64,000 nt of DNA from Minisyncoccota bacterium (GTDB taxonomy: Bacteria; Patescibacteriota; Minisyncoccia; Phycocordibacterales; UBA9973). Position numbers and translations under genes: made by a program. How positions within the stretch are numbered: the first letter of the stretch is position 1; each line of letters opens with the position of its first letter. Shown piece after piece: positions 34,322-63,679 of the stretch. Location: NCBI GenBank assembly GCA_041665885.1, contig JBAYHY010000002.1:19129-83128 (forward strand), read 5' to 3'. The notes beneath the pieces are model-generated. The model worked only from the letters and a program-made list of their open reading frames with translations. It did no database searches and was not told the DNA's origin.

Positions 34322-35407
34322 ATGAATAAATCTTATTTATTTTTATTTATTTTTTTTATTTTTCCCTTTTTTGCGCAAGGAATTTTTGCCACAGTCGCCT
34401 TTTCAGCTGTTCCAGAAGCAGCTAATTGCCCCATTCTTTCTACCTTGAGAGTGGGCTCCGTCGGAGAGCAGGTAAAATGTCTTCAAAAAATCGTTGGAAC
34501 AAGCCCGGACGGTTATTTTGGTCCATTGACCAAGGTGGCCGTTCTTTCGTGGCAATTAAGCCACAATTTAGTGGCAGACGGGGTGGTTGGTCCTCTAACT
34601 CGAACAATTCTAGTGAGCTTTACTGTTGCTAGTGACTTTCCGGAAGGGTGTACTCAAACCACGACATATAGCCCAACGACCGGAAAAAAGTGCAATGGCA
34701 GTGAAACAGCAGAAAATAGCGCTGGTCTTTCCCCTGCCTCTGTTTCATCAACAAATCCTGTCGTTATCCCGGGTACAAAAGTGGCTGTCGGTAGTAAGAT
34801 GCCGGAATCCTTAAAAGATCCCCAGCAAAACCTAGAAAATTACATTGCCTCAGTAAAAAGCGATCTTGTTAAAAGAGGCGAAACGCTGAGTACAATATTG
34901 CTTATTGAAGAAAGTATAAGAAACAGTGTTGCAGAAAACCCTAATGCAACCCAACAATTTTTTGATGCTCAAAGAGAAATTTATAATAAGACGGCTTCAG
35001 GGAAAATTTCTAAATTGTCCGCATTAGTTTTTTTTGATAAAGTTTTTTCTTTTTTCAGTAAAACTTTTTCTACAAACAAAGCTCAGGCGGCATCACAATT
35101 ACCGTTCGGGGGATTCGTTGGTGTATTCCCCGATTGTACTTGCACAGGTGAACCACCGGCGGTGGTCCAACTTTTTGTTACATTGCCAAGTGCCCCCACA
35201 GGAATTTCTAATATAAAGTTGAATTATGCGACGGGGACCCAGGCATTTTTGAATTTTAATTTACCGCTGGAGGGAGTTGCGGTGCTTGGTTTTTATAATC
35301 CTGCAGCCAATGTGGCATGTACAGTAACCATAGGGACGGGATGCGGCATAATACCCGCGGAAGGTCAGATTATTCCCACAGTGGGGTCTTCTCTTTCTCC
35401 GTCATAA
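34322..35407 (+). CDS. secreted protein with an N-terminal peptidoglycan-binding domain
   Basis: Signal peptide. ..GSVGEQVKCLQKIVGTSPDGYFGPLTKVAVLSWQLSHNLVADGVVGPLT matches PG_binding_1. Confidence 0.5.
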   Translation: MNKSYLFLFIFFIFPFFAQGIFATVAFSAVPEAANCPILSTLRVGSVGEQVKCLQKIVGTSPDGYFGPLTKVAVLSWQLSHNLVADGVVGPLTRTILVSFTVASDFPEGCTQTTTYSPTTGKKCNGSETAENSAGLSPASVSSTNPVVIPGTKVAVGSKMPESLKDPQQNLENYIASVKSDLVKRGETLSTILLIEESIRNSVAENPNATQQFFDAQREIYNKTASGKISKLSALVFFDKVFSFFSKTFSTNKAQAASQLPFGGFVGVFPDCTCTGEPPAVVQLFVTLPSAPTGISNIKLNYATGTQAFLNFNLPLEGVAVLGFYNPAANVACTVTIGTGCGIIPAEGQIIPTVGSSLSPS

Positions 35408-36320
35408 TTGTCAGCCACTCTTTTAAGGAAACATCTTCTGCTCGAGCGTTTTCTTTTATTCCAGCGCTAGTTAAAATTTTCAAAGAATTGTTTCCAAACA
35501 GCGAGCGCAGGTTTCCATTAAGTTTTTTTCTTTTATGGGCGAAACCTGCTTTTACAATTTCCCAAAATTTTTCTTCATTAATATTATTTTCTATAAAAGT
35601 TTTACGGGAAATATTGTTTATGGCAATTACCGCTGAGTCCACCTTCGGGGCTGGAGAAAAATAACGAGCCGGCACTTTCATAATTAATTTTGGCTCTCCG
35701 TAGGCCTTAACAGAAATAGAAAGAATGCTTTCCTTCCCACCTGCCCCGCCATGGCGCGGGTTGCGCGCGATTATTCTTTTTGCCACTTCATGCTGGACCA
35801 TGAGCACCATGGACGCGGGTTGGTTTTTTCCCGTCAAAAATTTTTTCAAAATTGCGCCGGTAATGTTGTAGGGGATGTTGGCTATGATTTTGTAAGAGCG
35901 CAAGATATTATTTTGCTCAACACGCATATTCGCCTGCTGGCGAATTGCTATGCTCGCGCCGTCGCGCTGCGCAATGTTTTGCAAAGCAATATCTTGCTTT
36001 AGATTAAAGTTTAAAATGTCTTCGTTTACTAGTATTAATTTTTTTTCAGCAATTTCTTTTGCAAATTTTTCTCCTAAAAATTCAAAAAGTTCGCGGTCCT
36101 TTTCCACGGCGATGACCAGTCCGGATTTTTCCAAAAGTTTTTTTGTTAATACGCCTTTTCCGGGCCCAATTTCTAAAATTACATCGTCTGGCCTGATGTT
36201 TCCCGCCTCTATTATTTTTTTCAAAGCAATTTCTGACTTTAAAAAATTTTGCCCTAAAGCCTTTTTGGCTCGGACGAAAACAGTTTTATTTTTAAGCCCT
36301 GGTGATTTTTTTGTTTTCAT
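35370..36320 (-). CDS. rsmA: 16S rRNA (adenine1518/1519-N6)-dimethyltransferase RsmA/KsgA
   Basis: ..LGQNFL... and the SAM motif VILEIGPGKGVLTKKL. Confidence 0.9.
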   Translation of the reverse strand: MKTKKSPGLKNKTVFVRAKKALGQNFLKSEIALKKIIEAGNIRPDDVILEIGPGKGVLTKKLLEKSGLVIAVEKDRELFEFLGEKFAKEIAEKKLILVNEDILNFNLKQDIALQNIAQRDGASIAIRQQANMRVEQNNILRSYKIIANIPYNITGAILKKFLTGKNQPASMVLMVQHEVAKRIIARNPRHGGAGGKESILSISVKAYGEPKLIMKVPARYFSPAPKVDSAVIAINNISRKTFIENNINEEKFWEIVKAGFAHKRKKLNGNLRSLFGNNSLKILTSAGIKENARAEDVSLKEWLTIMTEKEKTPLWE

Positions 36321-36352: not shown

Positions 36353-38593
36353 TTATAAATAAATTGTTTTTATTCCACTACTTTCCCCCTCTTTTTCTAG
36401 CAAATCAGCTGGAATATCGGAAATAAATTCAGACGGTGCGTTTATTTGGCGCGAGCCGAAAATGGTGCGGAAGTTCGCGAAGGATAAAAATAATTTTTCT
36501 TTTGCTCGAGTGAGGGCTACATAGAAAAGTCGTCTTTCTTCCTCTCTGTCTTCTCCTGTCTGTCCTTCGTTTTGCCTTTCGTGCGGGAAAAGCCCGTCTT
36601 CCATTCCGGTGACGAAAACATATTTAAATTCAAGGCCTTTTGACGCGTGCACGGTCATCAGCTTTATGGCACTGACTTCTTTTTTTTGTTTTTCTTCAGT
36701 AATCATTAATGAATCTTGGTCCGAGGCGAGCGAAGCATCTTCCAGAAGTTTTTCTATTCCGACACCACCTTCTAGGCTGTCGTATTTAATGGCCAGGGTT
36801 GCTAATTCCTTTATGTTTTCCAGTCTTTCCATGTCTTCTTCTCCCCCATTACTGAGTTCCTGTTCTATCCCTGATTTTTTGACCACAAATTTTATCGTGT
36901 CACTGGCTTTTGTTTTTTGAATTTTTTCTTTTATTTCTTCCAGGGTTTGATAAAAATTATCGACTTTTATTCTCACCTTTATCGGCAACTCTTCCTTTTT
37001 CCCGGTAAAAATTTTTGCCAAGGTGACTTTGCCGATGCCACGGGTTGGGAAATTGATAATTCTTTTTATGTCTGACAAGCTGTCTGGATTTAGGGCAGCC
37101 CGCAAATAGGCCAAGGTGTCTTTTATTTCTTTTCGTTCAAAAAATTTAACCCCGAGGACCTGATATGGAATATTGTAACGAAGCATCGCTTCCTCCAACG
37201 CGCGCGATTGAAAATTTGCGCGATAAAGAACGGCGACTTCGGGGAAAACATTCTCGGACTCACCACGAAAATTTTCTGCTGAAAATTTTCTCTGTCCGTC
37301 GCCGTCGCTCCTCCCAAGGGTTCGCTCGAGAGTGTTTTCCCCTTCGCCGGCGTAGTTTTTTCCAATTTTTTGTTCCCGAGGGTCCCACTTTGAGCCCGAA
37401 GCGCCCAAAGAAGGGCGCAGGGACAAAAAATTGGAAGAGACGAAGCCATCTCCATCAATAATTTCTAAAATTTTTGTCGCGACGTAGTCCGCTTCGTCGT
37501 TTTCGTCAAGCGCCTCATATAATCCTATTTTTTCACCCTCTACGTTGTCGGTAAATAAGTTTTTATCAGGCCTGTATACGTTTTTTTTGATTATTTCATT
37601 GGCTGCTTCCAGAATATTTTTGGTGGAGCGGTAATTTTGTTCCAATAAAATTATTTTTGCGTTCGGATAATCTTTTTCAAAATTTAAAATATTTTTTAGA
37701 TTTGCTCCGCGCCAGGAATAGATGTTCTGGTCCGCGTCTCCGACGACACAAATATTTTTATTATTTTCCGAAAGCAATTTTGTCATTAAATATTGCACCT
37801 CGTTCGTGTCTTGATACTCGTCCACATGGATATATTCCCATTTTTCTTGGTAAATTTTTCTGACTTCCTTGTTTTCCTTTAATAATTTTGTTGCTTTCAA
37901 AAGCAAGTCATCAAAATCAAGAGAATTTTCTTTCAGTTTTTGTTTTTCGTATAAGTTCCAAACCCGAGCGATTATTTGCCCCAGGGTATCTACCGCTCTT
38001 TCTGCGTAATCTTCCAAATGGGTGAATTTTCCTTTTTCTCTTGAAATTATATTTCTTATTTTTTTCGGATCATATTGTTTTGGGTCTATCCCGAGCTCCT
38101 TCAGAATATTTTTTATCAAGGTGACAGAATCCCCTTCATCCAAAATGGTGAAATATTTAGTTAAGCCCAATAATCGAGCATTTTCTTTTATGATATAAAC
38201 ACCCAGAGAATGGAAAGTGGAAACAAAGGGCTCTTCTGGATTTTTCGCGTAGCTTTTTTCAATTTTTTGATCCCGAGGGTCCCACTCGGTATCCCGAGAA
38301 GGGCGCAGGGACGAAAAATTGGAAGAAGCGAAGCTTTCTTTTATTGCAAAACTTATTCTCTCCCGCATTTCTTTGGCGGCCTTGTTGGTAAAGGTTACCG
38401 CCAGGATTTTGTCAGGAGAAACTCCCTCTTTTATCAGATTTACGATTCGGTGAGTGATGGTTTTTGTTTTACCCGCCCCTGCCCCCGCCACGACAAGAAG
38501 AGGGCCCTCTCGGTGCAGAGCAGCTTCTTTCTGTTCTTTATTTAGCCCTCTTAAGTGTTCTTTGTTTGTTTCCACCTTCTTAATATAGCACAA
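36353..38593 (-). CDS. UvrD/PcrA/Rep-family ATP-dependent DNA helicase containing three in-frame palindromic-element insertions
   Basis: Walker A AGAGAGKTKTITHRI, the ..VSTFHSLG.. motif, QDTNEVQY, and conserved C-terminal helicase motifs. Extra segments are present relative to PcrA: ~25 aa and ~60 aa. Confidence 0.9.
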   Translation of the reverse strand: MCYIKKVETNKEHLRGLNKEQKEAALHREGPLLVVAGAGAGKTKTITHRIVNLIKEGVSPDKILAVTFTNKAAKEMRERISFAIKESFASSNFSSLRPSRDTEWDPRDQKIEKSYAKNPEEPFVSTFHSLGVYIIKENARLLGLTKYFTILDEGDSVTLIKNILKELGIDPKQYDPKKIRNIISREKGKFTHLEDYAERAVDTLGQIIARVWNLYEKQKLKENSLDFDDLLLKATKLLKENKEVRKIYQEKWEYIHVDEYQDTNEVQYLMTKLLSENNKNICVVGDADQNIYSWRGANLKNILNFEKDYPNAKIILLEQNYRSTKNILEAANEIIKKNVYRPDKNLFTDNVEGEKIGLYEALDENDEADYVATKILEIIDGDGFVSSNFLSLRPSLGASGSKWDPREQKIGKNYAGEGENTLERTLGRSDGDGQRKFSAENFRGESENVFPEVAVLYRANFQSRALEEAMLRYNIPYQVLGVKFFERKEIKDTLAYLRAALNPDSLSDIKRIINFPTRGIGKVTLAKIFTGKKEELPIKVRIKVDNFYQTLEEIKEKIQKTKASDTIKFVVKKSGIEQELSNGGEEDMERLENIKELATLAIKYDSLEGGVGIEKLLEDASLASDQDSLMITEEKQKKEVSAIKLMTVHASKGLEFKYVFVTGMEDGLFPHERQNEGQTGEDREEERRLFYVALTRAKEKLFLSFANFRTIFGSRQINAPSEFISDIPADLLEKEGESSGIKTIYL
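37249..37340. repeat. Type 1 palindromic element (copy B) in frame in the helicase; encodes ..TLERTLGRSDGDGQRKFSAENFRGESENVFPE..
   Basis: ttctcggactcaccacgaaaattttctgctgaaaattttctctgtccgtcgccgtcgctcctcccaagggttcgctcgagag, with TIR ggggaaaacattctcg / cgagagtgttttcccc. Further copies at 48772, 52685 and 62547. Confidence 0.7.
37355..37445. repeat. Type 2 palindromic element (copy a) in frame in the helicase, adjacent to the Type 1 copy; encodes ..SSNFLSLRPSLGASGSKWDPREQKIGKNYAG..
   Basis: tccaattttttgttcccgagggtccc...gggcgcagggacaaaaaattggaaga; long inverted arms. Confidence 0.65.
38250..38335. repeat. Type 2 palindromic element (copy b) in frame near the helicase N-terminus; encodes ..SSNFSSLRPSRDTEWDPRDQKIEKSYA..
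   Basis: ttcaattttttgatcccgagggtcccactcggtatcccgagaagggcgcagggacgaaaaattggaag, ~85% identical to copy a in the same reading frame. PcrA has ~10 residues at this position. Confidence 0.65.
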
Positions 38594-41029: not shown

Positions 41030-41458
41030 TCACAAAATAATATCACTGACCACTTTTACTCTCGCCCTTTTTTCCTTTTGGCATAAATAAACAACCAAGA
41101 GATCTACTTGCCATTCTTTTTCGTCTGGCACCTTCTCGGACAACAAATATGTTTGAATTGTCCGAGACAACCTTTTTAGTTTCCAGGGGTGCATGTTGTC
41201 CTCGGGCCTGTGTTGGTATCTTTCGTCCGAATCATTATAAGACTTGGGGATAAAAGTATTCAATGTTTCTCGTGAAACGCTTTTTACTTCAACGAAATAT
41301 AGTTTGCCCTTCTTTTCCGCTATGATATCTATCTCTCCCCACTTCTTCGTATAGTTGCGGTCCAAAATAGAGAAATTATGTTTCACGAGAAACCTTGTGG
41401 CAATATTTTCCCCGATTTCTCCTATTTTTTGTGTTTCTGATGTAAATTTTTTCGGCAT
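41030..41458 (-). CDS. YraN/UPF0102-family (Holliday-junction-resolvase-like) endonuclease
   Basis: ..GEIGENIATRFLVKHNFSILDRNYTKKWGEIDIIAEKKGKLYFVEVKS.. fits the UPF0102 PD-(D/E)xK pattern. Confidence 0.6.
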   Translation of the reverse strand: MPKKFTSETQKIGEIGENIATRFLVKHNFSILDRNYTKKWGEIDIIAEKKGKLYFVEVKSVSRETLNTFIPKSYNDSDERYQHRPEDNMHPWKLKRLSRTIQTYLLSEKVPDEKEWQVDLLVVYLCQKEKRARVKVVSDIIL

Positions 41459-41535
41459 CCCGGTACTAAAATTTTAAGTTCTTAGTAATAATCGTTATAT
41501 ATTTTAATCAAAAATTTAGTACGGGACAAGTTTTA
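41459..41535 (-). promoter_or_regulatory. conserved inverted-repeat leader (copy 2 of 3) abutting the yraN-like start codon
   Basis: In gene orientation: ..ACTTGTCCCGTACTAAATTTTTGATT..(35 nt)..CTTAAAATTTTAGTACCGGG-ATG. Confidence 0.55.
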
Positions 41536-48718: not shown

Positions 48719-48771
48719 AATTTACCGCATTATCAATTTTTGCTCAACAACAGATTAAAAACAAATGTTTA

Positions 48772-48837
48772 TTCACCACGAAAATTTTCTGCTAAAAATT
48801 TTCTCTGTCCGTCGCCGTCGCTCCTCCCAAGGGTTCA
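48772..48837. repeat. Type 1 palindromic element, truncated intergenic copy (A), between the divergent TMEM175-like and murI genes
   Basis: ttcaccacgaaaattttctgctaaaaattttctctgtccgtcgccgtcgctcctcccaagggttca. Confidence 0.65.
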
Positions 48838-48876
48838 TAAATATTCGTTTTTAATCTGCCATGTTATATTGTAAGT

Positions 48877-49743
48877 ATGAAAAAAAGAGAAGGAATGAAT
48901 CCCGTTAGGGGCCGCGAGGGCTCGCAGCGACCCTCTGCCTCTAACGGGATGAAAATCGGGATTTTTGATTCAGGACTTGGTGGACTAATAGTCACCAGGT
49001 CAATCGTGAAAGCGATGCCGGAATATGATTATGTATATTTGGGGGACACCAAAAGAGTGCCCTATGGCAACCGTTCTCATGATGCAGTTTTTGAATTTAC
49101 CAGAGAATGTGTGGACTATCTTTTTCGTAAAGAAAATTGCGCGATAGTGGTCGTGGCTTGCAACACCGCTTCGGCCAGAGCGCTCCGAAGAATTCAGCAG
49201 GAATATTTACCGAAAAATTTCCCGGAGAGAAAGGTCCTGGGGGTTTTAATTCCTGCGGCGGAAGAGTGTGTAAAATTTAAAAGAATTGGAGTTTTAGGAA
49301 CTGCGGGCACGGTTGCCTCGAATACTTTCCTGAGAGAAATTCTCAAGTTAAATAAAAAAGTGAGGATTTTTCAAAACGCGGCCCCGATGTTGGTGCCCCT
49401 GGCAGAAGAAGGGGAGGAGAAAAACGTGGCCCCATTTATAAAAAAATACTTACAGCCGTTCTTAAACAAAAAATTAGATGTTTTGGTTTTGGGTTGTACT
49501 CATTATCCTTTATTTAAAAGCCAAATTAAAAAGTTGTTACCGGGCGGCGTGAAAATTATTTCCCAGGATGAAATAATACCAAGAAAATTAAAAGATTATT
49601 TGATAAGACATACTGAAATTAGGGCAAGACTTTCCCAAAAGGGAACTAGAAAGATTTTAGTAACCGATATAACAAAAAACGTAGAAAAACTTTCCCAAAA
49701 ATGGTTTGGGCCGAAGGCAAAACCTAAATTAGTAGAAGTATAA
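48877..49743 (+). CDS. murI: glutamate racemase, with a 24-aa N-terminal extension encoded by a GC-rich palindrome (conserved start probably at 48949, MKIGIF)
   Basis: MKIGIFDSGLGGLIV..., ..VVACNTAS.., ..LGCTHYP... Extension MKKREGMNPVRGREGSQRPSASNG is encoded by the palindrome at 48898..48952. Confidence 0.9.
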   Translation: MKKREGMNPVRGREGSQRPSASNGMKIGIFDSGLGGLIVTRSIVKAMPEYDYVYLGDTKRVPYGNRSHDAVFEFTRECVDYLFRKENCAIVVVACNTASARALRRIQQEYLPKNFPERKVLGVLIPAAEECVKFKRIGVLGTAGTVASNTFLREILKLNKKVRIFQNAAPMLVPLAEEGEEKNVAPFIKKYLQPFLNKKLDVLVLGCTHYPLFKSQIKKLLPGGVKIISQDEIIPRKLKDYLIRHTEIRARLSQKGTRKILVTDITKNVEKLSQKWFGPKAKPKLVEV

Positions 49744-49875
49744 AAAACTCGTCGCAGGTGTAGTTTTTATGAAACATTGCGCAGGCGGGTAGCCGAGCAT
49801 AGTAAATTTTCAGTAGAAAATTATACGTGTTGAACAAAAACTATACAAAGAAAGAGTTTTGTAACTACAACGAGT

Positions 49876-52375: not shown

Positions 52376-52404
52376 TTGCAAATTATGGTAGTTTATGCTA
52401 ATAT
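52376..52404 (+). promoter_or_regulatory. sigma70-like promoter TTGCAA-17-TAATAT placing the TSS at the rpsO ATG (leaderless)
   Basis: The -10 ends 7 nt before ATG 52412. Confidence 0.4.
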
Positions 52405-52411
52405 AACAAGC

Positions 52412-52675
52412 ATGTTAGCAAAAAAGAAAAAACAAACAGTGATTAAGAAAAATCAGATTCACGAGACGGATACCGGTTCTCCGGAAGTGCAAGTGGCTGT
52501 TTTGTCTATGCAAATTGATGCTTTGGCTAAACATTTAAAGAAACACAAGAAGGATAACCATTCTCGCCGAGGACTAATCAAGATGGTGGCTGATAGACGT
52601 ACGCATTTGAAATATCTAGAACGCAAAGATAAGTCTCGCTACACTTCTCTAATGAAGAAAATGGATTTAGCCTAG
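52412..52675 (+). CDS. rpsO: 30S ribosomal protein S15 (start refined to MLAKKKK)
   Basis: ..GSPEVQVAVLSMQIDALAKHLKKHKKDNHSRRGLIKMVADRRTHLKYL matches S15. Confidence 0.9.
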   Translation: MLAKKKKQTVIKKNQIHETDTGSPEVQVAVLSMQIDALAKHLKKHKKDNHSRRGLIKMVADRRTHLKYLERKDKSRYTSLMKKMDLA

Positions 52676-52684
52676 TGTTTTCGT

Positions 52685-52804
52685 AAAATATTCTCGGACT
52701 CACCACAAAAATCTTCTGCTGAAGATTTTTTCTGTCCGGCGCCGTTCAGAAAATGTACTCCCAGCACATTTCTGCTACCAAGGGTTCGCTCGAGAATATT
52801 TTAC
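52685..52804. repeat. Type 1 palindromic element, full-length intergenic copy (E), with 15-bp TIRs and an extra internal hairpin, between rpsO and the NYN gene
   Basis: TIRs gtaaaatattctcgg ... cgagaatattttac. Core is homologous to the copies at 37249, 48772 and 62547. Confidence 0.7.
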
Positions 52805-53373: not shown

Positions 53374-53538
53374 TTCCTTACAAATTTTTGCTTTTTTTGA
53401 ATAAAATGCTAGGATAAACCTAGTATTTTATTAGTTAATCAGTTCGCGTTCAGACACATAGTAATGTTCTTCTTAAAGAACAATACTGCAGTTTGGACAC
53501 GAACCTATGTAAATTTACAAAATATCAACTTTCTTTCG

Positions 53539-53599
53539 GCACGGATTTTTTGAAGCTTAAAAAATCCTGAAATTCTCGGCTCGCCAGCCTCGAAACCCC
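53539..53599 (+). repeat. Type 3 repeat (copy 1): A/T hairpin ggattttttgaagcttaaaaaatcc plus ttctcggctcgccagcctcgaaacccc, ~40 nt upstream of pnp
   Basis: About 90% identical to 63578..63637, which sits upstream of comM. Confidence 0.6.
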
Positions 53600-53636
53600 T
53601 TCAGAAAGTTATATTTTATAAATTTTATAAAAATTT

Positions 53637-59485: not shown

Positions 59486-60372
59486 ATAATCAAAATACTA
59501 ACAATTTCTTTTATCAAATTTTTCCGCTTTATTTTTTCTTCAAAAATTTTAGGGGAAACGAAATAAAATAGAAAAGCCCAAAAAAGAACAAAAATTGGTT
59601 GATAAGAATCCGCCAAAGAGACCAGGGCGACCGGAGCCATTATTAAGGCAAACTGAACGCAGAGGTTACTAATTAGTACAAGAATCTCGGCGGTAATGTT
59701 AAGTGTCATTATTTTCCCCTTGTTTTCTTTGAATACCCACAAAAATCTTTTTCTGTAATTTTTAATAAAAATAAAGATAAACAAGCCAGTGATGAAGAGT
59801 CCAAAATTTTCCCAAAAAATTGAAGTCCAAAAAGAGCTTTCTAAAGCTATTTTTTTAAAAATGATACCATTAAATGAGAAAAGAAATGATGACACGAGCA
59901 TCAAAGTCACGGCCTTTTTTTTGAATCGATAACTATTTACTTCGTCGAGTTCCAGGGATAAAATTATTGAACCAGCAATTATCACAAGCATTCCAATCAC
60001 TTGTAAGGTTGTGATGGTTTCTCCTAGAAAAAAATATCCTAATATTAAAAAAAAGATAGGGATTGTCTGGAAAAAGGGGACGACAACTGTCACCTCTTCA
60101 TCCTCTAGTGCAAAGAGGTAAGCAAAAACAGCCAGGGCACTTAAAATACCCAATACTGTTAGAATAATCATAAATAGTATGGGCATGCCAAAAATATTTT
60201 CTGTGGAAAAAAACCAAGCAACCGGCAAAACCAAAACACCAGCCAACGAGGAAAAAACCATAAGTGCGCCCACTCCGCCATCCTTGAAATACTTTTCAAG
60301 CATGTATTTATCAACGTGATTTACTAGAGCTAAAAGTAAGGGGCTAACAAAAGCAAGCAATATCCAATGCAT
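59446..60372 (-). CDS. EamA/DMT-superfamily transporter (10 TM)
   Basis: Two 5-TM EamA-like halves; highly hydrophobic. Confidence 0.6.
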   Translation of the reverse strand: MHWILLAFVSPLLLALVNHVDKYMLEKYFKDGGVGALMVFSSLAGVLVLPVAWFFSTENIFGMPILFMIILTVLGILSALAVFAYLFALEDEEVTVVVPFFQTIPIFFLILGYFFLGETITTLQVIGMLVIIAGSIILSLELDEVNSYRFKKKAVTLMLVSSFLFSFNGIIFKKIALESSFWTSIFWENFGLFITGLFIFIFIKNYRKRFLWVFKENKGKIMTLNITAEILVLISNLCVQFALIMAPVALVSLADSYQPIFVLFWAFLFYFVSPKIFEEKIKRKNLIKEIVSILIICIGTTLVYILNI

Positions 60373-61905: not shown

Positions 61906-63072
61906 TTATTTTAACTTTTCTATTTTCTCCCACGGGAGGTTTGGTTTACCGAAGTGGCCGTAGGTGGCGGTTTGAAAAAAGATTGGCTTGCGAAGACCGA
62001 GGCGTTCAATAATAGAGAGTGGTTTGAAGTCAAAATTTTTGCGAACCACTTCCGACAAGTCTTCACCCTTCTCGTTTATCGCCTCTATCATGAGGGGCTC
62101 TGCCATGCCGATAGCGTAAGCGACGGAGACGAGCGCTTCCTTGCCGTAACCATTCGCCACTAAATTCTTCGCGACGAAGCGCGCCATGTAAGCGCCGGAG
62201 CGGTCCACCTTCGTGGCGTCTTTCCCTGAGAAACATCCTCCGCCGTGTGGAATGATTCCTCCGTAAGTGTCCACCATTATTTTGCGTCCGGTTAATCCTG
62301 TGTCGGCCTCGAAGCCTCCTTGGATAAATTTACCTGTTGGGTTCACTAAAATTTTCACGTTTCGCTGTTCCTCGGGTGTGAGTAACGGGTAAATTATTTT
62401 TTCCGTGATTTCTTTTCTAATTTCTTCCAGTGAAACTTCTGGTGTGTGTTGAGCAGATACGAGGACGGTATTCAGTTTGCCATTCGTATAAGTGACTTGA
62501 GTTTTGCCGTCGGGGCGTAACCAAGGAATGTTGGCGGGGAAGATGTTCCCGGACTCACCACGAGAATTTTCTGCTGAAAATTCTCTCTGTCCGTCGTCGC
62601 CACTCCTTCCAAGGGTTCGCTCGGTAACATCTTTCCCGCCACGGCGCGCCTCCTCCAGCCGTTTCGCCAGTTTGTGCACGAGGACGACACCCTTCGGTAG
62701 AAATTCCGGCGTTTCGTCCGTCGCGAAGCCATACATGATGCCTTGGTCGCCGGCGCCACCATTGTCCACTCCCTGGGCTATTTCCGAGGACTGGGTGACG
62801 AGGTGGGCAGAAATTTCAAGTTTATTTTCATACCCGATCTTTTTATAAACATCGCGAGCAATTTTTACATAATCAACTTCTCCTCCCGAGGTCACCTCTC
62901 CGCCTATTGTGAGCCGGCCATGACCACCGAAAACCTCTACCGCCACGCGGCTTTTGGGGTCTTGCGCTAAATAAGCATCTAAAATAGCATCGGAAACTTG
63001 GTCGCAAATCTTATCCGGATGTCCGGAGGTTACGCTCTCTACTGTGTAGTTGTCATTATGCTTGTAAAACAT
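61906..63072 (-). CDS. metK: S-adenosylmethionine synthetase with an in-frame Type 1 element insertion
   Basis: ..[24 protein letters not shown].., GGGAFSGKD, ..[12 protein letters not shown]... Insertion peptide ..[31 protein letters not shown]... Confidence 0.9.
   Translation of the reverse strand: [388 protein letters not shown]
62547..62634. repeat. Type 1 palindromic element (copy D) in frame in metK
   Basis: gttcccggactcaccacgagaattttctgctgaaaattctctctgtccgtcgtcgccactccttccaagggttcgctcgg, with matching TIRs gggaagatgttcccg / cggtaacatctttccc. Confidence 0.7.
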
Positions 63073-63552: not shown

Positions 63553-63577
63553 ATTTTTTAGTATATTTTTCTAGGGT

Positions 63578-63637
63578 ACGGATTTTTTGAAGCTTTAAAA
63601 ATCCTGAAGTTCTCGGCTCGACAGCCTCGAAACCCCC
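63578..63637 (+). repeat. Type 3 repeat (copy 2), ~40 nt upstream of the comM/yifB-like gene
   Basis: acggattttttgaagctttaaaaatcctgaagttctcggctcgacagcctcgaaacccc. Confidence 0.6.
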
Positions 63638-63679
63638 TAAAAAACATACTAAAAAATTGTTAGTAATTTTTAATTATTT

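Follow-up and report, generated by a model that had tools for sequence, protein, structure and literature searches.

Structured palindromic elements with a fixed core and freely varying stems, mostly in frame within genes, in bacteria of the Candidate Phyla Radiation

The intergenic space that follows rpsO (ORF 52376..52675, + strand) in the window, the whole 64-kb stretch of DNA analysed here, contains a palindromic element, copy E, that begins 8 nt past the rpsO stop codon and ends 59 nt ahead of the next + strand ORF (52864). Copy E is a long variant of an element that we refer to as Type 1, and its parts are listed in Table 1 along with the other copies recognized in the window. The initial annotation had placed the element at 52685 to 52804, and the place is right, with the real start at 52683, so that 52685 falls 2 nt inside the stem. 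The arms it quoted were also right, bar single-base slips: what was read in copy E as 'ccgag...' is 'tcgag...', and thus the fifteenth pair is absent.

Table 1. Positions of the parts of copy E and of the other Type 1 copies in the window.
Feature	Position	Strand	Context or remark
Copy E, long variant of Type 1 element	52683..52804	+	Intergenic; covariance model 98.9 bits
Copy E, P1 5' arm GTAAAATATTCTCG	52683..52696	+	14/14 Watson-Crick pairs with 52791-52804
Copy E, P1 3' arm CGAGAATATTTTAC	52791..52804	+	Perfect 14-bp stem with 5' arm
Copy E, junction CACCAC	52701..52706	+	Columns invariant across 51 aligned copies
Copy E, hairpin P3 AAAAATCTTC-TGCT-GAAGATTTTT	52707..52730	+	Compensatory T-A to C-G versus consensus
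Copy E, long-form hairpin P4 (CAGAAAATGT...ACATTTCTG)	52747..52774	+	24 nt (8 codons) extra
Copy E, junction CCAAGGGTTC	52778..52787	+	Invariant in alignment
Copy B, 102 nt	37241..37342	+	In frame in UvrD/PcrA-like ORF 36353..38593 (-); 132 bits
Copy C	48751..48858	+	Intergenic, 18 nt upstream of murI start (48877); 113 bits
Copy D	62532..62641	+	In frame in MetK ORF 61906..63072 (-)
Copy A, subfamily 1b	35900..35997	+	In frame in RsmA/KsgA ORF 35370..36320 (-); 61.4 bits, E=7e-14
Sixth copy, subfamily 1b	49742..49862	-	Intergenic; 41.7 bits, E=7e-9

The consensus fold of the element is based on an ungapped alignment of 51 copies (alignment A1). Its length is approximately 102 nt, or approximately 126 nt in the long form. 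A closing outer stem, P1, mostly of 16 bp (range 13-27 bp), encloses a conserved three-way core, in which the junction strands CACCAC, CTGTCCG, and CCAAGGGTTC are invariant. Within the core, P3 is a 10-bp hairpin, GAAAATTTTC-TGCT-GAAAATTTTC, with an invariant TGCT loop, and P4 is a small hairpin in which C-G is replaced by U-A in 13 sequences; five of the 51 aligned copies, copy E among them, have in its place a long hairpin adding exactly 24 nt. The terminal inverted repeats (TIRs) of the initial annotation are the stem that closes a structured element, of which they are the least conserved part, and not conserved termini of the transposase type, and the self-complementary gaaaattttc that it had seen twice in the core corresponds to the two GAAAATTTTC strands of hairpin P3, for which copies E and D present compensatory variants.

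The covariance model recognizes six Type 1 copies in the window, four of them intact and two diverged. Copies B, C, and D, on the same strand as copy E, were found by a repeat finder and a profile search, and copy A and the sixth copy were added by the covariance model; the core pattern, TCACCAC-N9-CTGCT-N11-CTGTCCG, has four matches in the window versus 0.00 expected from shuffles. Two weak matches of the repeat finder, at 59725 and 60718, are attributed to chance. Copy B encodes the peptide GENTLERTLGRSDGDGQRKFSAENFRGESENVFP, immediately ahead of the LYRANFQSR motif of the host protein, and its stem, GGGGAAAACATTCTCG / CGAGAGTGTTTTCCCC, is made of 15 Watson-Crick pairs and one T·G, while the stem of copy D has 20 positions with one G·T and one further mismatch, accompanied by a compensatory variant of P3 (GAGAATTTTC/GAAAATTCTC). 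Copy C possesses an intact core, but its 22-position stem is unrelated in sequence to the stems of other copies. The two diverged copies form a sister subfamily, 1b, that is present in another species too, with the junctions CAACAC / CTATGCTCG / GCGCAATGTTT. Copy A keeps both P1 (GCAAGATATTATTTTGC/GCAAAGCAATATCTTGC) and P3 (ATTCGCC-TGCT-GGCGAAT), and the sixth copy, the only one in the window in the opposite orientation, is located between the convergent genes for murI and exonuclease III. The cumulative GC skew of the window (1-64000) has its minimum at about 36-42 kb, near a tRNA cluster, possibly marking a replication origin or merely a switch in gene orientation, and the five Type 1 copies of like orientation are found on both sides of this minimum.

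Beyond the window, a scan for the core pattern in a single genome of each species produced 69 stretches, mostly from assemblies of Candidatus Nomurabacteria, Paceibacterota or Patescibacteria, and scans of JGI metagenomes and of IMG/VR produced 97 and 3 further stretches, respectively. Once a profile search had been applied and exact duplicates discarded, 112 distinct copies were left, almost all from Nomurabacteria/Paceibacterota/Patescibacteria records, i.e., from the Candidate Phyla Radiation (CPR). The retrieval pattern fixes 19 core positions, so that intact cores are favored and decayed copies under-sampled in this collection; all of the copy data originate from metagenome assemblies, and the genome of the window itself is outside the retrieved sets, with the closest relatives there only about 76% identical in host genes. 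Pattern matches in Micromonospora, Streptomyces, and similar records were not confirmed by the profile search and are regarded as chance matches. Three IMG/VR contigs classed as viral (L167, L168, L169), one of which is a metagenome contig already fetched, contain the exact core pattern, and these may be either phages of CPR bacteria or misclassified CPR DNA. Searches against Rfam 15 recognized only tRNAs at the gathering threshold and no family for the element, and in a permissive search with two copies the best E-values were above 1, for unrelated miRNA or snoRNA models. Protein-database searches with the encoded peptide returned 3 and 10 matches, mostly short fragments, uninformative as to host range. 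No account of such elements in CPR bacteria turned up in our literature search, and a search for compensatory changes in Rickettsia palindromic elements (RPEs) found nothing relevant.

As to the proposal that the TIRs differ between copies while staying complementary within a copy, this is borne out by the larger collection. In the 51 aligned copies, changes on both sides are found at all 16 of the P1 pairs, so the differences have compensatory partners and are not random mismatches, and none of 500 shuffles reached the covariation score observed. P1 is paired at 90.7% when read on the + strand (the strand with the core written CACCAC...) and at 95.3% when read on the - strand, and the whole structure in registers slid by 1-3 columns is only 35-63% paired. 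The same is seen among orthologous copies occupying the same site: at UvrD site A (22 sequences) 14 of 16 P1 pairs are changed on both sides with 91.5% paired, and in Fmt (19 sequences) 14 of 23 pairs are changed on both sides with 91.1% paired. As orthologous same-site copies covary, the changes in P1 must have arisen in place after insertion, and are not only differences between source copies. The further claim, of selection on the hairpin, finds support in a strand asymmetry of the mismatches (see below), with two qualifications, that some of the between-copy differences in the window are subfamily differences rather than in-place changes, and that template-switch correction of imperfect palindromes may contribute to stem upkeep.

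Most of the copies reside in genes. Of 112 copies, 94 (84%) are in frame within long open frames, and the remaining 18 are intergenic, in either orientation relative to the neighboring genes. At least 13 independent host sites are recognized, in the genes for UvrD (two sites), UvrB, UvrC, RecG, RsmA, MetK, and Fmt and in unnamed genes, each adjoining a very conserved protein motif. One frame of the - strand is used by 87 genic copies (..LERTLGRSDGDGQRKFSAENFRGESENIL.., ..GQNVLERTLGRSDGDGQRKFSAENFRGESENILP...) and one frame of the + strand by the other 7 (..SDSPRKFSAENFLCPSPSLLPRVRSR..). Four of the six frames are open in the consensus, two of which are never used, and the main frame is the one with the most hydrophilic peptide. 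All genic copies, including those of the long variant, keep the frame and possess no stop codons, and because the frame is conserved, the insert is likely translated, giving the host protein an additional hydrophilic loop of some 34 residues; tryptic peptides are predicted across it (SDGDGQR, KFSAENFR, GESENILPEVAVLYR). The possibility that the plus-oriented genic copies represent in-place flips was rejected, as a symmetric inversion would bring frame +0 into phase, and this frame has a stop in 62 of 64 copies. One example of variable presence is MetK, whose homologues fall into two classes, empty (approximately 354 aa) and filled (385-399 aa), and residues 148-180 of the MetK encoded in the window have no counterpart when aligned to solved MetK chains. 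An AlphaFold2 model of this MetK, built on a 24-sequence alignment, had a mean pLDDT of 53 and was set aside.

Conservation is concentrated in the core. In pairwise comparisons between species, orthologous copies share 92-95% of all core positions and 89-93% of the core positions left free in the search pattern, versus an identity of 55-77% for the arms and 50-61% for the third codon positions of the adjoining host motifs (the latter between orthologous loci). Orthologous cores are as conserved as the first plus second codon positions of the best host motifs. Variability in the core is 7.7% at third codon positions versus 2.5% and 5.6% at first and second positions, and as third positions are only a little more variable, the constraint acts on the nucleotides rather than on the peptide. 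Decay in place would be expected of a purely selfish element, and the conservation of the cores therefore requires a constraint at the level of the host or of the family.

As to gain and loss of the element, a pair of MetK alleles from contigs of two groundwater assemblies is instructive. A filled allele (L170:3001-4164, P0013) and an empty one (L171:686-1750, P0027) are 100% identical over approximately 2 kb outside clusters of mismatches, which include 9 mismatches in the 26 nt upstream of a 99-nt indel, 25 in the 151 nt downstream and a patch of 9 at +427 to +490, along with single mismatches at -845 and +551. This is a mosaic recombination tract from a diverged donor, and at least in this pair, gain or loss of the element took place through homologous exchange of the host-gene segment. 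At the UvrD-A site, in loci that were fetched via another copy, about half of the elements are intact, some are decayed, and other loci are empty or occupied by another family. A third example is RsmA, where three 'empty' sites (L002, L120, L018), just ahead of YKIIANIPYNI, contain perfect mini-hairpins of 6-7 bp, those of L002 and L120 matching the outermost arms of filled copies and differing from each other in a compensatory manner (GTTAGG/CCTAAC vs. GCTAGG/CCTAGC). These mini-hairpins are probably the scars of internal deletions.

Empty UvrD-B sites (e.g., L037, L028, L019, L026), ahead of PFVSTFHS, read GGACAAAAT (Gly-Gln-Asn), equal to the outer 9 nt of a Type 1 arm and complementary to TTTTGTC of the Pro-Phe-Val codons that follow, which may reflect a target preference, a remnant, or a coincidence. 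The outer parts of long stems, as well as GGACAAAAT at these sites, may be host-derived. As a general rule, copying of the arms from the target site was rejected, since most arms share the consensus GGRCAAAATATTCTCG across unrelated sites. TYC trinucleotides are common in the flanks on both sides, and these are no more similar within copies than between copies, with within-copy identity in 11 of 68 versus a permutation mean of 7.8 and maximum of 16. Nor did a transposase or a parent element come to light, which weighs against the account favored below.

The strand that folds leaves a mark in the mismatches of P1. Read on the + strand, A·C is found 96 times and G·T 12 times, or 36 versus 11 times (binomial p=3e-4) if each combination of site-group, position, and base pair is counted once and one recurrent position is dropped. 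This recurrent position presents A-T 17 times, G-C 16 times, A·C 16 times, and G·T never; thus, read on the - strand, AU, GC, and GU are all present and the non-pairing AC is absent. In 106 of 108 copies, RNA of the - strand is more stable than its + strand counterpart, with a mean difference of 8 kcal/mol. Pairing, with G·U counted as a pair, is maintained on one strand in particular, and as neither arm copying nor a realistic mutational strand bias can give such asymmetry, it is the single-stranded fold of the - strand that appears to be under selection. The folding form is most probably mRNA, as the - strand of the element is the sense strand of the mRNA in 93% of the genic copies (87 of 94). 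One rival explanation dispenses with selection and has complementarity kept by mutation, through intramolecular template switching or gene conversion between the arms at replication. In E. coli, mutation through the correction of quasipalindromes is well established, the stems remain complementary even where the canonical core is missing (the 1b copies and the RsmA scars), and they are near-perfect despite the wide range of their lengths and their unrelated sequences. However, arm copying is blind to the type of mismatch and cannot make one transition mismatch outnumber the other 8:1 (or 3.3:1), nor does it explain why three of the four base combinations are equally represented at the recurrent position and the fourth is absent, and the persistence of G·U-type pairs at about 6% of positions implies that correction is not fast; we consider this explanation quite improbable. 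Another rival accepts selection on the - strand and places the hairpin in single-stranded DNA, on the lagging-strand template, where it would be cut and pasted in trans by an HUH-type enzyme, in the style of IS200/IS605 or REP/RAYT, with the core as the recognition site. Consistent with this, the asymmetry follows the strand of the element where this can be separated from transcription, as it is not reversed in the 7 genic copies with the + strand as mRNA (A·C 3, G·T 1) and holds in the intergenic copies (12:2), and the - strand folds better in all 7 of these plus-oriented copies and in 16 of 16 intergenic ones; moreover, target-site duplication is not seen, and five of the six copies in the window share one chromosomal orientation. 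But the counts that separate folding of single-stranded DNA from folding of mRNA are very small and in part go back to a single ancestral position, and the sole polymorphism examined is a tract of homologous recombination, not a clean insertion. IS200/IS605 derivatives have two subterminal hairpins and a fixed 5' target tetranucleotide, and neither is seen in Type 1. On balance, we find the DNA substrate unlikely.

The account that we favor, with moderate confidence, is a joint one, of a mobile and mostly selfish element whose P1 is kept paired in a single-stranded form, probably mRNA, whose core is read by a putative factor, and which is spread in part by recombination. According to this account, P1 would stay paired in the single-stranded form of the - strand, most probably mRNA, through selection, and, having only to close the structure, it would be free to drift by compensatory change, while the fixed junction core would be the sequence-specific part, read by a putative trans-acting factor, either a mobilizing or processing enzyme or an RNA/DNA-binding protein. 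Spread and loss of the element would occur at least partly via homologous recombination. Much of the same evidence, namely the nucleotide-level conservation of the core at orthologous sites, third codon positions included, the fixed three-way-junction nucleotides combined with covarying stems, and the coincidence of the folding strand with the mRNA strand in most genic copies, is also what would be expected of a module maintained by the host, a cis-acting mRNA structure that coordinates excision-repair, recombination, and methyl/formyl-transfer genes and that is recognized or cleaved by, e.g., an RNA-binding protein or an RNase specific for double strands, or binds a ligand at the three-way junction. 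The hosts are indeed enriched for UvrB, UvrC, UvrD, and RecG, along with MetK, RsmA, and Fmt. Against it, many species have empty, scarred, or decayed sites, suggesting that no single copy is needed; intergenic copies are found in either orientation and some genic copies in the opposite one; unrelated palindromic families are found in the same loops, pointing to permissive sites rather than a regulon; and there is no match in Rfam. A host regulon thus seems unlikely to us. Among the four rivals, only removal of the insert by splicing or bypass is close to excluded. In this case the element would behave as an intron at the RNA level, be skipped by the ribosome ('hop' bypass), or be removed by protein splicing, and the host proteins would not contain it, for which one could cite the insertion beside highly conserved motifs, as for inteins and homing introns, the co-conversion of flanks in the MetK pair, and the ability of a stable hairpin to juxtapose both junctions. 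Yet every genic copy is in frame and free of stops, even in the long variant with its exact +24 nt, and only two of four open frames are used, the main one being the most hydrophilic, a constraint not expected of a sequence that is removed; an insert of 34 aa is also far below intein size, and no ribozyme or intron family is matched.

A bolder proposal, possible although doubtful at this point, is that the core is a working nucleic-acid module under purifying selection in translated sequence, rather than a decaying parasite, serving as the recognition site of a homing-like, recombination-based spread or as an mRNA structure bound or cut by a CPR-specific factor. If this were true, the module would represent a previously undescribed class of 'coding-embedded' structured elements in the CPR, found within 13 or more housekeeping genes, with a concentration among those for excision repair and recombination. 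The combination of free stems, a fixed core, and pairing on one strand is a clearer signal than such elements usually give, and allows direct tests of what reads them. On the practical side, loops of approximately 34 aa in MetK, UvrD, RsmA, Fmt, and other marker proteins affect alignments, homology models, and phylogenies of CPR bacteria, and pairs of filled and empty alleles can serve as natural markers for homologous recombination among CPR populations.

By analogy, we judge Type 1 to be a CPR family that behaves like the Rickettsia palindromic elements, its closest analogue among known systems. The RPE-1 to RPE-10 families are several families of short palindromes that the housekeeping genes of a small genome tolerate within their reading frames (Ogata et al., 2000; summarized in PMC10969869). 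From the excerpts of that source, the likeness extends to palindromes of approximately 100-150 bp in several families per small genome, to in-frame insertion into unrelated housekeeping genes with a conserved peptide, along with intergenic copies, and to the lack of a known transposase (PMC10969869). Differences are also apparent. Type 1 resides in Patescibacteria, while the hosts of RPEs are Alphaproteobacteria, and the two are likened here by behavior and description, not by membership of an RPE family. Roughly half of RPEs are intragenic according to the same excerpts (PMC10969869), versus 94 of 112 for Type 1, and the fixed core with free stems, the conservation of orthologs at the nucleotide level, and the strand-specific G·U bias are features that these excerpts do not describe for RPEs. 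In-frame palindromic 'selfish DNA in genes' has so far been essentially a Rickettsia curiosity, and the CPR would present the second clear case, with several families using the same protein loops; recurrence in an unrelated streamlined lineage suggests that such elements may recur in tiny, almost all-coding genomes.

Other known systems are less similar. Bacterial miniature inverted-repeat elements (MITEs) whose RNA folds into hairpins, such as ERIC/IRU, Correia/NEMIS, RUP, and BOX, resemble Type 1 in size, in inverted-repeat ends, in the many dispersed copies and in the occasional in-frame intragenic copy (PMC10969869, PMC2759123), and co-transcription with neighbor genes is plausible for both. 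However, the terminal inverted repeats of MITEs are conserved, recognized by a transposase, and accompanied by target-site duplication, whereas the termini of Type 1 are its least conserved part (55-77% versus 92-95% in the core), with some arms unrelated in sequence, no copy-specific duplication is detectable at its copies, and most of these are intragenic. Inteins and homing introns are similar in distribution only, adjoining highly conserved motifs of replication and repair genes and presenting filled and empty alleles in near-identical backgrounds with a short foreign flanking tract, as recombination-mediated transfer leaves behind, but Type 1 has neither a splicing domain nor an endonuclease gene and is in frame and presumably translated. 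In REP/BIME-RAYT and IS200/IS605-derived elements, as in Type 1, structure outweighs stem sequence and there is one apparent folding strand, but REPs are extragenic and 20-40 nt in length, compared to 102-126 nt and 84% intragenic for Type 1, and the single long closing stem around a three-way core also sets Type 1 apart from both groups.

Type 1 is not the only palindromic family with this life style. The same protein loops are home to at least four further in-frame palindromic families, with arms unlike those of Type 1, and thus a common terminal repeat across the different families was rejected. Two type 2 repeats (arms TTCCAATTTTTTGT/ACAAAAAATTGGAA) are present in the window, at 37350-37451 and 38247-38339, both in frame in the same UvrD ORF as copy B and encoding the peptides SSNFLSLRPSLGASGSKWDPREQKIGKNY and SSNFSSLRPSRDTEWDPRDQKIEKSY, one of them directly adjoining copy B. 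Another example is a hairpin of about 52 nt (ATCCCGTTAG...CTAACGGGAT) at 48899-48950, inside the 5' end of murI, encoding GREGSQRPSASNG; as this peptide recurs as a C-terminal extension of two MetK homologues (P0041 and P0049), the hairpin represents one more mobile in-frame family. In two further MetK homologues (P0017, P0018), a different family (peptide ..LLRQGLSQTDGPRVSA...) occupies the exact MetK site used by Type 1 in the window, and at least five families are found across species in the UvrD loop ahead of LYRANFQSR (e.g., L025, L059). As the MetK and UvrD sites host different families, a few loops are hot spots common to several of them. Repeats are also present between the genes of the window. 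One intergenic pair, 53538-53607 and 63575-63644 (90% identical), has one copy upstream of pnp and the other downstream of a dksA-like gene; the covariance model of Type 1 matches this pair weakly (21-24 bits), perhaps owing to a similar hairpin architecture. Another pair, of 80 nt (16289-16368 and 41456-41535, 85% identical), has inverted ends (CCCAGTACTAAAATTT...AAATTTAGTACGGG), and one of its copies adjoins the tRNA cluster at 40.7-42.5 kb.
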